NCBI GenBank assembly: GCA_043754515.1
Contig: JAYUUO010000098.1
Coordinates: 1-43,719, forward strand
Direction: 5' to 3'
From: Armatimonadota bacterium
GTDB lineage: Bacteria > Armatimonadota > Armatimonadia > Armatimonadales > Armatimonadaceae
Length of the DNA: 43,719 nucleotides
Position numbers: made by a program. Positions 24,001-36,000 of the stretch are shown piece after piece (the first letter of the stretch is position 1; each line of letters starts with the position of its first letter).

Positions 24001-27000
24001 CCTCGCGGTATTCGGCAGCGATGGCGAGGATGGATAGACACGGGTATGTCTCCAGAAGGGCCCGCGCTGACTGCTCCAGAAACGCGCCGGAAATGTCGAT
24101 CGGGATGTACTGGAGCGTTCGCTGGCGGCGGAGTGCCGCATCAATCAACAAACGCGTCTTGCTCGAACTGCCGCTCCCGAGTTCGATCAGCACCAGCGAC
24201 CGCGCACCCGTCGCGGCGAGGATCTCATCCGCGTGCTTAGCGAGGATCGTCCTCTCGGTGCGCGTCGCGTAGTACTCGGGCAGGTCGCATATCTTCTCGA
24301 AAAGGGCGGAACCCGCCTCGTCATAGAAAAAGCGGCACGGCAGGTGCTTCCGCGTGGCGGAAAGCCCGATCGCGACCGCCTCCGCCAACGTCTCCCCATT
24401 CGCCGAGGCGGGAGCGGTTATCATATTCAGATCGGAGGAGTTCACGGGCACGCGTATCCTTTTCTTCTTAACACGATGACAGTTAGAGTCTGAACCTCAC
24501 GGGAGAACACCCGCGAGCGGTAAGTGAATGACCAACGACGGCGGCGGAAAGTTCGCACAAGAGGAAAAGTGTTCTACCAACCACCAGTACCCGGCTCGCC
24601 CTTGAACGGCCCGACGATAGCATCCGTGATCCAGCCGCCATAAAAGTCGCCCGCCTGCGCCCGAACCGGCTCGTCGTCCACGAAGCAGGTGTCCATTTTG
24701 CCGGGGTAAAATGCGATAGCGTCCCGGATCGGCGCGAACGCCGGACCGGGTTGCGGATAATACCAGGCGGCGGGCGACACCGTCCGGTCGCCGACGGTGA
24801 GCGCGTAATAGCGGGCACTACCCTTGAACTCGCAGTGCGTGGTAACGCTCAGCGGCGCGAGTAGCTCCATGTGCACATCGGCGGGCGGAATATAGTAGAC
24901 GGGTGGATGGCTCGTTTCGAGAACCCGATAGGCGTTCGTCGAGTCGGCTATCGTTTCGCCGTTGAACACGACGCGAACACGGCGCGTCGTCGGCTCGCAA
25001 CGCGGGGGGCGTGGGTAGTCCCAGACCGATTCCTGGCCGGGTCCCGGCGTGACACGTACGACGCTCATACGTGCTCCTGATCCACATAGCACCAACGCCA
25101 GTCCTCGCCCGGTTCCGCCGAGCGCATGACGGGATGGCTGGTGTGATGAAAATACGCGGTAGCGTGCTTGTTCTTGGACGAGTCGCAACAGGCGACATGT
25201 CCGCAGATCAGGCACTGGCGCAGGTGAACCCACGTATCGCCAGTTTTAATGCAGTCCTCGCAAACGCGCCCAGGTGCCGGAACCGCGTGTAATTGATTCA
25301 AATGCGTGCAATCTGTAGCCATCAGTTTTGCGCTTATCGCCTCCGTATCTAGTCTACCCCAACCGAGCGGCGATACGTGGCTGTGATGTTGACATATGAA
25401 GGCGGATGTTCGCGGGTGCCCTCGCTCAGTGTCGGCAGACGACGGGCGGGGTATTGAGCCGCCCGCATTCGCTCGCGATTTCGGCGGCGGTTAGCGATCC
25501 CGGACGCATCTCGATGTGGTAACGGAACTCGTACAAGCCGCCGACATAGCGCGGGAAATTCGTTTCCCATTTATTGTTCGTCAGCCACGAGTAGAGAGTG
25601 CCGGTCGGCTCGCGCGTGGTCGTGTATCTCCACAGGTTCAGCCCCCCGATGTGGACGAGCGGGACATCGGGCGTCGCCAACACGACGGCGAGTTCGGGCG
25701 CGATCAACGCCGCGCCTTCCTGAACCGAGTAGTAGTCACAACAGGTTCCCGGCAACTGATCAACACCCGGTCGCATCGCGGCTCCCTGCCGGTCCAGATG
25801 CCACGCGCCGCCGTCAAGAGCGAACGGGAAAGCGGCATACAACCCCTCCGGATCGGCGACATCATGCTTATGTAGCTGGAGCGTGAGTTCGATGCGCGGC
25901 AGGTCACGGAAGAGCCGTAAGATGATTCGATAGCGCGACGTTCCCGCGACTTCGTAGTCAAGCGACAACTCCGAGTACAACGCGCCGCCCGAATGCGGTT
26001 GGACGCGGACGCACTTGCCGTGATGAATCTCGCCGACGGGGATGATGCGCGGTGCCATCAAGAACCCGGCGGCGTCGCTACGGTTCGCGCCGGGGAATAT
26101 CTGGTAGACTGGCGCGCCCAGACCGTGCTCCGATTCTTGCGCAAGCGTCTCTACCCCATGAACGAGATCGAGTAGCGAGTAGATGCCCCGCCCCCGCGAC
26201 CAGGACAGGCGATAGAAAGCGTTCTCGTAAGACGCGGTTTGTGCCGGGTCATCACTCGCCTTCGCGACCGGCGCATCGTCAGCCGGGACCGGCCTTGGCT
26301 CGATGGCGAAGTCGCGCCGCTCGCCCGCCTCTAGCGTCACGAGCACCGCGATCAGCGAGCCGCGCGGCGCGGGTTCAACCTGGTGCGGGTATACATTGCC
26401 CTCCCGGTCGGTCACCCTAAACCCGGACGCGAGCACGGGCTGCTCCCAAGAGTCCACCGGCAGGTATGCGACATCGGCGTGTAGCGCGTTTGTGGCGTTG
26501 ATCACGGTGTAGGTCAGCGGGCGGCGGGCGGAGAACTCACCCTCCCCTAGCCGACGTAGCACCGCGTCGGACGCGGCTCCGATTAGGGTGTCGGCTTCCG
26601 CCGTGAACGCAGACTTGCGCAGAAATACCTGCTGTGTCAGGAGCGAACCGCTATCGGTACGCGAGTGACCGTAGGTGTGTTCCGCCGCGACCAGCAGGGA
26701 GCGCGTTATCCGCCCCCGCTCGGCGTCCCTGACCACTTTACCGAGGGGATCTAGTCTTTCCAGCATCCGCTTCGTGCGCTGGGCCTGGCGGAATATCCGG
26801 GTTTCCCGCGGCGCGGACGCTTCGCCGTCGGACCACCAATCGGGCCAATCCCCGCCGAAAGTCGGAATCGTGGTAACGGCTGTTTTAAGGTAGTCAGCAA
26901 ACTCGCTCAAGGTCGCCGTTTGGATCAGAACTTCGTGGCCGTGTTTGGCGTTCCACTCGGCTAGCAAGGAACAATACTGATCTGTCGGCGGGCTGTTGTC

Positions 27001-33000: not shown

Positions 33001-36000
33001 CGTAAGGAACGCCTTCAACGGCGGTCGGCGTCGAAACGACCACGATAGGCAAATCCAGCGCACGAAGCCCGCTCACAATATCCGACCCGATCGGCGGCGC
33101 GACCACCAGCGTTCCGTCCGTCTGGCTACTCTGCACCTGCGACGCCGACACATCCGCCGATTCCCAGGGGCGGGTGTGGACATGTATGTCATAACCCCGC
33201 GCCGACGACTCATAGAACACCCCGCTCAAAACGCCGACCGCGTAGTGGTTTGTAACGATAGCCGATTCGATACCCGGCATCAAGACGCCCAAACTAAAGC
33301 AACGGCGGTGTACCAACCCTCGTGCCATCGCGTCCGGGTGGTAATTCATTCGTCGCGCCACTTCGCGGACACGGCGGCGGGTCTCGGGGTTCACCGACCG
33401 CGTGCTGTTATTCATGACGAAAGAGACTGTGGTTATAGATACCCCACTCTCTCTCGCGACATCTCGGATTGTTGTCATCTTTGCTTCTTCGCCACTCAAG
33501 TTGCGCAAAACGTTTTGCACGCGTAACCTATATATAGCAAAACGTTTTTACTGTCAAGGCTCTTTGCAAAATATTATTCGTTCCACCTTGCGAGGTGTAT
33601 ATGAAGGGGTCTCAGACGTGACACGGAACCCAATGCAGGAGTAAAGATCCGCCTTGACAGGAATAGTGGCTCGTGTTACAATTTTACGAACAACTTTTTT
33701 TGGCAAAGTTATTTTCCAAACCGAGTGTATGGAGGATCGGTGTATGACGAACTACGACGCAGAGCGTGCAGGCGATACGAGGGGGAGTGATGGGACCGAA
33801 CACCAAGACGCGGAGGCGAACCCGAGCGCAGTGGCTCTGCCGCTTCGGGTCGGCGCGGGGAATCTCCCGACCCGACCCGGCGCGCGGAGGCTATTAACGG
33901 ACAGCGATAAGCACGCGACGCGACCCGCAAGCAAGAAGCGCGGCTGGTCGAGCCTAGTCTGGCTATGTATTGTGGTGGGGATCTGCGCCGGTTCCGTCGC
34001 GATGGAGTGCGCGGCGCACATCCTCGCCAGAGTCTATGCGGATCCGCTCCCCCACTCCGGCTACTTCGCCGCGTACATCCTCGCGATAGCCGCACCGATT
34101 TTAGTGCATCGCGTCCTCCATCACCCGGCGCGGACTACGCTCTCGACAGGCTACGCGGTCACGGCGAACGCCTTCTCGCTCCTGATGGCGGGCATGATGT
34201 CACTCGCCCTGCTTCCTACCTCGCCCTTCGCCGTGATCCTGTGCGCGTTCTTCGGGTTCGGCTTGCTCGGGCTGTCCTCCTACTTCCTGCTCGCGCTCTC
34301 GATCTACCAGGCCACCCGACTGCGCGCCCTGATCCGCGAAACCGGCGTCCGTCCCGGACGTACCGCCGTCTGGAGCGCGGGTGCGACGGTCGGCGCGACC
34401 GCGCTGGTGCTGTTCATCCACCCGCTTGTCGCCGGAACGCTCCTGACGCAAGCCCTGCGGCGCGGCATTTCCCCCCGAGAAGAGCGGACGGCGGCGACCC
34501 GGTTGCACGCGCTGGGCGGTGAAAATGCCGTACTGATGCTCTGCTACCGAACGCAATTACCTCTCTGGGAAGCGGCGGGCGTGGTGCTTTCGGGGGGCGC
34601 GAGCGAGACGGGTGTCCGTGACAGCTGGCTCCGGTGGGGCGGCGACATTCGCACGGATGACCCGTCGGTGAAACAAGCGCGGCGACTTTACTTCCTGATG
34701 ACCGGCGAATCGTTCGGCAAGGCCCCCGTGCCGTGGACTATCGCAAACAAGCACCCCCAGACATGGATCACGGACATGGCGCAAGAGGACGTCGGCGGGA
34801 CCCGAGTCGGCAGAAACGCGACGGGACTGTCCCTCCGCGAGAAGACGGGAACAGTCACACCAGATACGGCCAGCGGCACCGGCGAGTGCGACCTTTCACT
34901 CACCTTCGCGAACGAGTCAGGCACCGCGAACGAGGCACGCGCCGAGATCTTACTCCCTCCCGGCGCGGTACCGGACGGCGTCTGGCTGTGGATCAACGGA
35001 ACCCGGCACGCCGCCGCGTTCGGCCCCCAGACTACAGTACGCAGGGTGTACCAGAAGGTAGCTGTGGTTCAGCGACGCGACCCCCTACTAGTGACGATGC
35101 CAATACCCGGCAAACTGCTTCTTCAGTGCTTCCCGATCCCCGCACACGGCACGATGCGTGTTCGGCTGGCACTTACGATGCCGCTGTCGCCGGACGCGAA
35201 CGACCACCAGGAACTAACCTACGCGCTACCCGCCTGGGGGGCGACTAACTTTACCGGCGCGGGCAGACTCGCAGACGCCCTAATGACTCGTGACGTTGCG
35301 ACCGGCAAGCCCCCAACACTCCCATTGAAACTGCCGATCGGAGTCGCCTGGGACACGCGGGCGGTGGCACGAGTGCCCGTACATCTGTTGATCGCCTTCG
35401 ACGCGTCAGCGGGAATGCGCACGGCGTTTGGGGCGCGGGAGCGGGACGCACTACGGTCCGCCGTTCGCGAGTTGCCGGAAGGCTCAACCGTGCGGTACGC
35501 CGCGACGGACGGCCCGCTCCAGAGCGACGATACGGGACTTCTCCGATTTAACGCGGGGCGCGACAACGTCCCATCGCTGGAGCGCGAAGCGCGGGACGAA
35601 CTCGCGGGCGACGCCGTGTTGCTTTATCTACACGCGGGAACGCCCGAGTCGGTAAGCGATCCCGCGCCGCTCGTTGAAGCTATCAAGCGGCTTCCACCGA
35701 CGGTCAACAGCCGCCCACGATTTGTCTCGCTCCTGCTTGCACCTGACGCGCCCGACACGATTGGCGACCGTGTCGCTATGCAACAAAGTGCCCGATCAGT
35801 AAGCGTCGCGCAGTACCGCGACGTGTCGGAGGCGATCCGGGCGACAGTGGCGGGGATTGCGCGGGGGGAAGATTCCCCTTCACTCGCCACACAGGGTACC
35901 CCCGCGGCTTGTCGGCTACGCGGTTATCGCGACGCACTCGCAGTCTGGTACCGGGCCAACAACTTCGGGTCGGAGGCACTCGAGGCGGCGCGGAACGCGG

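Follow-up and report, generated by a model that had tools for sequence, protein, structure and literature searches.

Most sugar-sensing repressors of this Armatimonadota bacterium appear to control a type IV pilus-type protein of their own, often together with polysaccharide-cutting enzymes, an arrangement that points to an undescribed form of glycan capture. In the available passages of two papers, glycan passage across the outer membrane in polysaccharide-eating diderms with few TonB-dependent receptors is presented as a standing question (PMC11131199, PMC11685898), and our literature search retrieved no link of DUF1559 to sugar repressors or hydrolases in titles, abstract openings and text passages. 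DUF1559 is a very large family without assigned function, and the cassettes described here give individual members named substrates: putatively, the C174 clade serves an alpha-glucan and the locus under study a beta-1,4-glucan-type polymer. We place at about 45% the probability that these pilins serve a type IV filament as subunits for the capture of specific substrates, acting in place of SusC/SusD.

A six-gene cassette led by a LacI-type repressor

The window analyzed is a 43,719-nucleotide stretch of contig JAYUUO010000098.1 (C98), in forward-strand numbering with contig position 1 as position 1 of the stretch. Its cassette comprises six genes, all on the minus strand (25426-33478), ordered as LacI repressor, DUF1559 pilin, 91-aa disordered lipoprotein, anchored CBM8-fold protein, GH9 lipoprotein and GH38-like enzyme; the genes were found as initially described. 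By eye, a sigma70-like promoter is read at 33529-33557 (minus strand), with a -35 box TTGACA (33557-33552), a 17-nt spacer and a -10 box TATATA (33534-33529), which the consensus scanner missed because the -10 box lacks the final T. A perfect, unstranded 14-bp LacI-type palindrome (operator copy 1, 33505-33518) lies immediately downstream of the -10 box, and an imperfect one, also unstranded (operator copy 2, 33537-33550), within the promoter spacer. The 339-aa regulator (32459-33478, minus strand) carries the LacI helix-turn-helix (PF00356, 58.6 bits) and a PBP domain (PF13377, 120.9 bits), both above cut-off, and is predicted to be autoregulated from the palindromic operator at its own promoter.

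Downstream follow the 299-aa DUF1559 type IV pilin-like protein (31456-32355, minus strand; PF07963, PF07596 and TIGR02532), the small lipoprotein (31083-31358, minus strand), with a lipobox LLAG-C, a Pro/Ala/Gly/Lys-rich linker and one short predicted helix, and a 240-aa membrane-anchored CBM-like protein (30160-30882, minus strand), modeled by AF2 as an N-terminal helix (7-26), a linker and a CBM8-like beta-sandwich. The remaining genes encode a GH9 endoglucanase-type enzyme with CBM30 and Ig domains and a lipoprotein signal (27826-30150, minus strand; PF00759, 271 bits; PF21582, 98 bits; PF02927), in which the DAGD and NENA motifs, which we take to be catalytic in GH9, are both present, and a 791-aa GH38-like glycosidase without signal peptide (25426-27801, minus strand), matching PF01074 with 68.9 bits over the N-terminal domain only (GH38N-like). 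Judging from the GH9, CBM30 and CBM8-fold families, the substrate is most likely a soluble beta-1,4-glucan or glucomannan-type polymer.

Sugar-type regulators are coupled to pilin-like genes

Two independent searches, with jackhmmer and with the PF13377 profile, found the same 28 PBP-type regulators in the genome. For 22 of these LacI/GntR sugar-type regulators, a DUF1559-like ORF is found no more than 700 nt away; when genes of similar length were drawn in their place (10,000 draws from a pool of 1,219), the average was 1.3 and the highest count 7. The coupling noted initially is thus confirmed, but its count (16 of 26 regulators adjoining a pilin) was too low. Twenty of the coupled regulators are upstream and on the same strand, including all 15 loci of this layout listed previously (the C118 pilin is frameshifted), one is divergent, and one lies downstream of its pilin. 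A further regulator (C232) has a pilin one gene away, and those at C72 and C295 end close to the border of their contigs, at distances of 352 and 215 nt, respectively. The downstream lipoproteins in 10 of the 15 loci, and the anchored proteins in four, were likewise recovered.

In a hand count that covered part of the regulator-free loci, 11 of the 23 units with a regulator had a Pfam glycoside hydrolase inside or next to them, versus 3 of the 29 regulator-free pilin units scanned (Fisher p = 0.004). The pilins had been described as standing beside matching hydrolases, which holds for about half of the cassettes; 12 of 23 have no Pfam hydrolase in cis, and in at least one the enzymes are remote, under the same operator. 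Many cassettes encode enzymes with a lipoprotein or signal peptide, and several others only cytoplasm-type enzymes or none; several cassette enzymes, of families GH38, GH42, GH30 and GH95, lack an evident signal peptide, which implies oligomer import. An ABC transporter is present in one of the 23 units (C150), with its own classical binding protein, so that the LacI/ABC glycan operon layout of the Gram-positive type (ABC binding protein plus permeases) is confined to that unit, and no TonB-dependent receptor was found in any of the 23. Regulator-free pilins adjoin small-solute binding proteins or importers (NMT1-like, Bmp-type ABC, TonB receptor with ExbBD, HupE/UreJ), and three of the six DUF6785 genes lie beside pilin loci.

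Counted over cut-off, the genome holds two TonB-dependent receptors and four SBP_bac_8 proteins. Across the order, all 47 of 47 genomes carry 1-7 TonB-dependent receptors, in a lineage whose DUF1559 genes number from tens to hundreds. The type IV machinery of the genome includes three PilB-size ATPases, PilT-type ATPases, five secretins, PilN, PilO and a prepilin peptidase, beside which lies a PilC-like gene named from its N-terminus and position only; peptidase, ATPase, platform and secretin of a cognate machinery are therefore all represented.

Operators and remote regulons

Operator palindromes were located at the promoters of cassettes. The window operator has no convincing extra copy upstream of other genes in the genome, and no convincing regulon in trans was found for its LacI; most other cassette operators have no convincing remote copy in the genome either. 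One palindrome has two occurrences in the genome, one with the C51 LacI and the other with a further pilin unit. Three places carry the C150 operator: the C150 LacI, the lipoprotein-pilin-ABC-GH43 unit that belongs to it, and a remote unit of anchored protein and GH9. In relatives, this operator marks the orthologous LacI in two of five and unrelated places in three. At C174, the operator links a hydrolase-free LacI-pilin unit to remote GH13 amylases, which constitutes an alpha-glucan regulon pairing the pilin with two secreted amylases. In six relatives this operator lies between the orthologous LacI (71-90% identity) and pilin (47-50%), and it precedes orthologs of the two amylases in four and two relatives; 6 of its 25 sites in relatives have no evident link. 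Together with three co-induced pairs in a cultured member of the phylum, the promoter palindromes and this conserved amylase regulon give good support to the earlier proposal of carbohydrate-induced operons.

Conservation and expression in relatives

The cultured Armatimonadota member is Fervidibacter sacchari, for which published RNA-seq and protein levels were used (PMC11535203, supplement). Three of its regulator-DUF1559 pairs co-vary in RNA-seq (r = 0.91, 0.96 and 0.94, each first of 30), with peaks on beta-glucan/locust bean gum/xyloglucan, starch/xanthan and gellan, respectively. Any co-transcribed pair would be expected to show such co-expression, which is not proof of function. Protein levels match RNA for one pair, two of the three pairs peaking on other substrates. 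Glycan induction of the three pairs is a finding at the RNA level in F. sacchari. Eighteen of its 30 DUF1559 genes vary less than 5-fold, no hydrolase was seen among the neighboring accessions viewed around the three pairs, and a GH13 amylase was not induced by starch. Because a cultured strain carries the three induced pairs, they are direct targets for binding and knock-out assays.

Regulator-pilin coupling was also found in five relatives (15/30, 20/30, 8/14, 14/30 and 22/29; 47-76%), and the cassettes are conserved in two families. For orthologous regulators (at least 60% identity), the linked pilin head came out ahead of all others, out of about 55, in 11 of 15 directed comparisons, versus 0.27 expected. 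Between orthologous cassettes, head identity is as low as 29-64%, and for two of about eight orthologous pairs another head matches better, the heads of one of these two pairs being unrelated; low head identity would also fit diversifying surface antigens. Relatives of the window pilin adjoin many hydrolase families (GH1, 5, 18, 30, 42 and 99-like), so that the pilin subfamily does not fix one substrate, and no ortholog of the whole window cassette was found in 20 relative loci examined, from about 57 matches in relatives. Regulation and co-inheritance back the initial description of the pilin as substrate-specific, while binding is not supported.

Leader, fold and head of the pilin-like protein

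The window pilin belongs to DUF1559/SBP_bac_10, scoring 44.7 bits with PF07596 (gathering cut-off 23.3) and 35.6 with PF07963 (21.2), with TIGR02532 above cut-off as well; its sequence contains the C-terminal H-X9-DG motif, for which TIGR04294 scores 16.7, below the cut-off of 19. Like type IV pilins, it displays a class III-type hydrophilic leader, Phe+1, Glu+5 and about 21 hydrophobic residues, in a helix of about 50 N-terminal residues followed by an aromatic-rich looped head. Position -1 is Ala, rather than the Gly of the canonical type IV pilin leader (PMC4471445, available passages); among 69 pilin leaders, this residue is Gly in 35, Ala in 33 and Val in one. Phe+1, Glu+5 and the assembly helix are near-invariant across 58 homologs, which suggests selection for filament packing.

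With regard to the pilin fold, a long alpha1 against a beta-sheet, the AF2 model (pLDDT 87, pTM 0.86) had pilins or pseudopilins as its five best VIA-align matches, the best being 6xxd_A at a low Z of 4.4 (rmsd 3.7, 122 of 125 residues aligned), and Foldseek returned nothing at E <= 0.001. SBP_bac_10 was also considered as a solute-binding fold; none appeared among the structural matches listed, though such a fold could still exist. Cassette pilin heads contain 3.4% Trp, 5.2% Tyr and 7.3% Asn, compared with 1.3, 2.8 and 3.0% genome-wide, and the aromatic enrichment is almost as high in regulator-free pilin heads. The family has 57 intact and about 12 broken copies; recoded stops and general phase variation were rejected for the latter, as the breaks vary in place and kind and only one falls at a G8 run. 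In a quick, weakly supported tree of the 57 pilins, regulator-linked copies are mildly clustered (13 changes versus 17.6 shuffled) without forming a single clade.

Accessory lipoprotein and anchored protein

A homolog search with the window lipoprotein returned only itself, and an Atlas comparison gave only unnamed clusters, below 0.9; its architecture recurs after 68 of 132 pilins with room downstream. A SusD-like identity was discarded, the mature parts averaging 56 aa with 1.4% W+F+Y. Complex prediction with the pilin of a relative (of the window pilin's subfamily) and its own hairpin-type lipoprotein, as alignments, scored 0.01 against a mark of 0.32, which we count neither for nor against an interaction.

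The model of the 240-aa anchored protein (pLDDT 81) is a CBM8-like beta-sandwich, with CBM8 7t7y as best Foldseek match (E 1.4e-11, TM 0.83 by target, rmsd 1.8). The predicted fold is the same, but this protein is stand-alone, membrane-anchored and 21% identical, and its ligand binding is putative only; conserved aromatics (Y59, W67, W72, F118, W160, W182) are no more than suggestive of glycan binding. In 8 of 33 long homologs scanned, the module sits on GH44. The anchored proteins of about 200-240 aa had been taken for a new family, which does not hold: the four share the anchor but no single domain family, the domain of the window protein being a widespread CBM8-fold module.

Proposed function and alternatives

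We propose that the cassette is a sugar-sensing unit, in which a LacI or GntR-PBP repressor would keep its own promoter, and with it the DUF1559 gene on the same transcript, silent until a glycan breakdown product lifts repression (layout and operators come from this genome, induction from Fervidibacter only). The DUF1559 protein would be cut by the prepilin peptidase of the genome and enter a type IV filament as a minor or specialized subunit, the filament being assembled by a common PilB/PilC/PilN/PilO/secretin apparatus that includes PilT-type motors. Its large variable head may bind the cognate glycan or oligomers, and filament cycling could pull the glycan through the secretin, or keep it at the surface for the co-regulated enzymes and the anchored CBM. 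The pilins would thereby take the SusC/SusD role where TonB-dependent receptors are scarce, with the small lipoprotein as a possible accessory tether or assembly helper rather than a glycan binder. A broader version, which we consider credible though on balance unlikely, has the pilins as interchangeable ligand-specific receptors of a general import route. Glycans and other nutrients would be drawn through a secretin by a type IV filament that retracts, and this filament would stand in for TonB-dependent transport in the Armatimonadota and probably also in the PVC bacteria; dozens of separately induced receptor subunits would rely on a single motor and pore.

The pilins might instead be glycan-specific adhesins, induced pilus subunits that only attach the cell to polysaccharide particles while uptake proceeds via porins and inner-membrane transporters. 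In the available parts of the reports, xylan induces the PilA of Caldicellulosiruptor, which binds this polymer as well as cellulose (bioRxiv 10.1101/614800), and attachment is put forward as the role of the Akkermansiaceae MUL2 pilus (PMC13174399); Fimbriimonas pseudopilins have also been interpreted as attachment factors (PMC4072686), and rapid head divergence and the broken copies fit surface exposure. However, adhesion makes little sense for regulator-free pilins beside small-solute binding proteins and importers, and there are not enough outer-membrane receptors to serve about 20 glycan regulons; we hold this explanation to be rather improbable. We give a slim chance to a type II secretion-like machine with the pseudopilin as cargo adaptor, aiding export or display of co-regulated enzymes without glycan contact: the five secretins and three PilB-size ATPases, the exported enzymes of many cassettes and the amylase pairing of the alpha-glucan regulon would suit it, but not the cassettes with cytoplasm-type enzymes only or none, nor the F. 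sacchari pairs with no hydrolase seen beside them. Cargo-specific pseudopilins are, to our knowledge, no known feature of type II secretion, which also counts against it.

Similarly poor odds apply to unassembled, membrane-anchored periplasmic binding proteins, the helix being an inner-membrane anchor and the head passing oligosaccharide to inner-membrane transporters such as the DUF6785/DUF6784 proteins or ABC permeases. The leaders with Ala at -1 (about half), the DUF6785 genes beside pilin loci, the cassette with an ABC transporter and the Tuwongella counterparts, which fractionate unlike plain pilins (PMC8567305, available passages), are in its favor; yet the near-invariant Phe+1, Glu+5 and helix argue for assembly, the sole ABC cassette carries its own binding protein, and outer-membrane passage is left unexplained. 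Chance clustering or passive hitch-hiking of a large, often broken gene family has a negligible probability, being refuted by the null draws and the conserved operator regulon, together with the fixed gene order, the operator copies before pilin units themselves and the conservation in two families.

Relation to known systems

Polysaccharide utilization loci (PULs) of Bacteroidota have the SusC/SusD pair as their defining feature, plus surface glycan-binding proteins. The cassettes share with them a separate regulator for each glycan, hydrolases under joint control, an enzyme displayed as a surface lipoprotein, a CBM-fold protein tethered to the membrane and many paralogous loci per genome. 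They differ in lacking a TonB-dependent receptor and SusD, in having as constant partner a type IV pilin-like protein together with a tiny disordered lipoprotein, and in using cytoplasmic LacI/GntR repressors as regulators. With the term as used in the available passages of PMC11131199, the PUL-like organization suggested initially fits in layout, a regulator with co-located CAZymes being present in 11 of 23 units, and departs in the absence of tandem susC/susD.

Compared with the bindosome of Sulfolobus, a monoderm archaeon, our model aligns with pilins, secretins are present and an ABC transporter is limited to 1 of the 23 cassettes. The subunits of the bindosome are ABC-type binding proteins for sugars, and the window pilin has the class III-type signal with no solute-binding protein among the structural matches listed. 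Class III signal peptides are shared, as would be a tie to sugar uptake and dependence on a type IV filament machine (PMC4471445, available passages). The Planctomycetota expansion shares the N_methyl and SBP_bac_10 domain pair, tens of paralogs and neighbors with lipoprotein or Sec signals, and the passages available give neither a link to sugar repressors, operators or hydrolases nor a function (PMC8567305). In Caldicellulosiruptor PilA and Akkermansia MUL2, as far as the accessible text describes them, a pilin is likewise induced by or tied to glycan use; each is one pilus locus with its assembly genes, whereas here about 20 separately regulated pilin genes have a shared machinery in trans.

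Organisation of the window cassette

The window is contig C98 of a genome that comprises 5.13 Mb in 313 contigs, with a completeness of 92.7%; the names carried by homologs of its pilins suggest a member of the Armatimonadota. In the window, six co-directional genes run on the minus strand from 33478 down to 25426: a LacI repressor that opens the cassette, an N_methyl and SBP_bac_10 (DUF1559, PF07596) protein, hereafter the pilin, a 91-aa lipoprotein, a membrane-anchored protein of 240 aa, a GH9 enzyme that carries CBM30 and a lipoprotein signal, and a GH38-like enzyme that has no signal. 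The promoter, found by eye (TTGACA-17-TATATA), holds one copy of the operator within the spacer, and a second copy, a perfect palindrome, lies directly downstream; operator copies within or after the own promoter are the usual layout of self-repressing LacI operons. Hairpins are located 3' of the pilin and 3' of the lipoprotein genes, and an AT-rich gap of 200 nt precedes the anchored protein, so that a putative internal promoter or a stepped-down expression before this gene is possible. Elsewhere in the window, a divergent gene with a strong sigma70-like promoter encodes, at 33654-36218 (+), a VIT-domain protein whose XrtN/PEP-CTERM-type sorting signal is weak, and an 85-aa lipoprotein of similar low-complexity style, with no adjoining pilin gene, is found at 37311-37568 (+).

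Genome-wide coupling of regulators and pilins

Gene sets were obtained with jackhmmer over all six-frame ORFs, yielding 92 pilin-like pieces, including 57 intact pilins with at least 200 mature residues, and 28 LacI/GntR regulators with a Peripla_BP domain, the identical 28 being recovered by a PF13377 search. Twenty-two of the 28 regulators lie at most 700 nt from a pilin ORF (null mean 1.3, maximum 7), in a pilin set that excludes canonical short pilins and two weak fragments. The regulator is upstream and on the same strand in 20 units, and these contain all 15 regulator-pilin loci reported by the initial annotation. Among the 23 linked units, including C232, a hand table recorded a small lipoprotein in 16, an anchored protein in 5 and a Pfam hydrolase in cis in 11; by comparison, 3 of 29 scanned regulator-free pilin units, which cover part of such loci, have a nearby hydrolase (p = 0.004). 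Regulator-free pilins have other kinds of neighbour. At four loci (C36:147-2207, C27:18873-24819, C150:52510-59536 and C150:82205-87409) these comprise an NMT1-like binding protein, an ABC transporter with a Bmp-type binding protein, a TonB receptor together with ExbBD, and a set of DUF4331, TPR and HupE/UreJ genes; further genes occur beside other regulator-free pilins. The NMT1-pilin pairing was found again in a relative (L173).

PF07596 occurred in 40 of 40 relatives searched, with 17-50 each among the matches scored, and in none of 14 control genomes. Regulator-pilin adjacency in five genomes was 15/30, 20/30, 8/14, 14/30 and 22/29, three of these counts covering the best 30 of 42, 66 and 100 regulators. 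Among 20 loci of the window pilin's closest relatives, a regulator directly adjoins a pilin in 13, and 12 of these 13 contain a CAZyme, the families being many and different. The regulator-pilin cassettes are a real genome-wide and order-wide organisation, and they are very probably sugar-regulated.

Operators and co-inheritance

The C174 cassette is free of hydrolase genes. An exact match to its operator, CCCAACCGNTTGGG, is found at three distinct sites in the genome against 0.23 expected, one ahead of the pilin and two ahead of secreted GH13 amylases. The starts of C96 and C60 (1-120 in each) overlap as reverse complements, and the operator counted on both contigs is therefore a single site, with an amylase on one side and a divergent operon for peptide-type ABC permeases on the other. 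In six relatives the operator occupies the gap that separates the divergent LacI ortholog (71-90%) from the pilin (47-50%), and it precedes orthologs of one amylase in four relative genomes and of the other in two; 6 of 25 sites in relatives have no evident link. Being shared by pilin and GH13 amylases, this predicted operator ties one pilin clade to alpha-glucan independently of gene neighbourhood. The C51 palindrome has two genomic copies within two mismatches, ahead of the LacI gene and of a second pilin-lipoprotein unit, while that of C150 precedes its LacI gene, a lipoprotein-pilin-ABC-GH43 unit and, with three mismatches, a remote anchored-protein gene that has a GH9-like gene next in line.

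For regulators that share 60% identity or more, the head of the linked pilin was the top match across genomes in 11 of 15 directed comparisons, which represent about 8 independent pairs, against 0.27 expected. These heads are only 29-64% identical, and one pair has an unrelated head. The comparisons show that regulator and pilin are inherited together and that heads evolve fast; they do not show specificity.

Protein structure and broken pilin genes

The pilin model (58 sequences; pLDDT 87, pTM 0.86) has a helix at residues 3-53, then a loop-rich head with an H-X9-DG motif in the final strands. Its best structural matches are pilins, at a low Z (4.4); in Thermus PilA4, 122 of the 125 residues align. 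We read the window protein as a predicted pilin core into which about 160 residues are inserted. Heads are enriched in Trp, Tyr and Asn, nearly equally in regulator-free copies, and Ala occupies position -1 in half of the leaders. The small lipoproteins have about 56 residues past the cysteine, without aromatics, forming one helix or a helical hairpin, and vary even among orthologous cassettes. The 240-aa protein is modelled as a transmembrane helix with a CBM8-like sandwich, a domain with 2,340 relatives that is also part of GH44 enzymes and of polysaccharide deacetylases; all four same-anchor loci scanned elsewhere have a CAZyme within two genes.

In-frame stops, frameshifts or truncation disrupt about 12 of ~72 DUF1559 loci (C30, C48, C173, C197, C150:86308, C118, C254, C174:31351, C19, C194:17253-19096, C202 and C253), but none of the 28 regulators (p about 0.02), and one frameshift sits at a G8 run. 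Birth-and-death evolution or phage pressure is the suggested cause, with assembly error a further possibility.

Expression in Fervidibacter sacchari

RNA-seq means on eight polysaccharides are available for this cultured member of another class of the phylum (PMC11535203; GEO GSE249938); the main text of that paper does not contain the word 'pilin'. Three of the five regulators annotated Peripla_BP_3 have a DUF1559 gene of near-consecutive accession, from which adjacency was inferred, and in all three the paired gene is the best correlate among 30 rows assigned to DUF1559 by annotation name, a set that omits about 19 'prepilin-type' rows. The pairs respond to beta-glucan, locust bean gum and xyloglucan (r = 0.91), to starch and xanthan (r = 0.96, 43-fold range) and to gellan (r = 0.94, 17-fold). 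On the opposing side, 18 of the 30 rows vary less than 5-fold, only in the first pair does the proteome match the RNA, the neighbouring accessions viewed included no hydrolase, and the GH13 amylase is flat.

Proposed function and known systems

For the machinery and ALTERNATIVES, the genome encodes PilB- and PilT-type ATPases, five secretins, PilN, PilO and a prepilin peptidase. The analysis establishes the cassette layout with its operators and its conservation, the presence of the machinery, the folds and, in another class, co-induction at the RNA level. We favour, at a probability of about 0.45, that the pilins belong to a shared type IV filament as subunits that each capture a particular substrate: the DUF1559 protein would be processed by the prepilin peptidase and built into the filament, and glycan bound by it would then be imported. 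Pseudopilins counted in Fimbriimonas were interpreted as adhesins (PMC4072686), and a purely adhesive role is an unlikely second choice here; that the pilins act as export adaptors, or stay in the inner membrane as unassembled binders, appears somewhat less probable still, each to a similar degree. The capture mechanism is directly testable.

The cassettes work like polysaccharide utilisation loci, but are not such loci by the susC/susD test. They resemble the Sulfolobus bindosome in idea (PMC4471445), the head here being pilin-like. DUF1559 expansion with flanking signal-peptide genes is published for Planctomycetota (PMC8567305), and glycan-binding pili are already known (bioRxiv 10.1101/614800; PMC13174399). 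No link of DUF1559 to sugar repressors or hydrolases appears in the accessible portions of PMC4959169, PMC11685898 and PMC11131199, nor was one found in the literature covered, which is mostly outside subscription journals. The cassettes combine type IV pilins with PUL-like regulation.

Transport and associated loci

Only two TonB-dependent receptors and four SBP_bac_8 proteins exceed the cut-off in this genome, and 1-7 such receptors were counted in each of 47 genomes of the order, by a long query that can miss weak matches. Three tandem secretin genes at C201:8066-13011 are possibly specialised pores. Three of six DUF6785/DUF6784 membrane proteins adjoin pilin loci (C51:47933-49981, C194:23274-25268 and C310:13556-15484), a fourth adjoins a GHL6-type hydrolase, and in one relative (L160) such a gene precedes a pilin; they are candidates for the inner-membrane importer of pilin systems. 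GHL6-type hydrolases of identical length (682 aa) at C51:45845-47893 and C256:1781-3829 each adjoin a DUF6785 gene, possibly a duplicated hydrolase-transporter pair. Large proteins in or beside pilin cassettes at C221:8020-9579, C186:7231-11133, C82:3594-4460 and C51:7682-10915 have no Pfam match and are candidate undescribed glycan enzymes; the three N-termini viewed all have signal-like starts.
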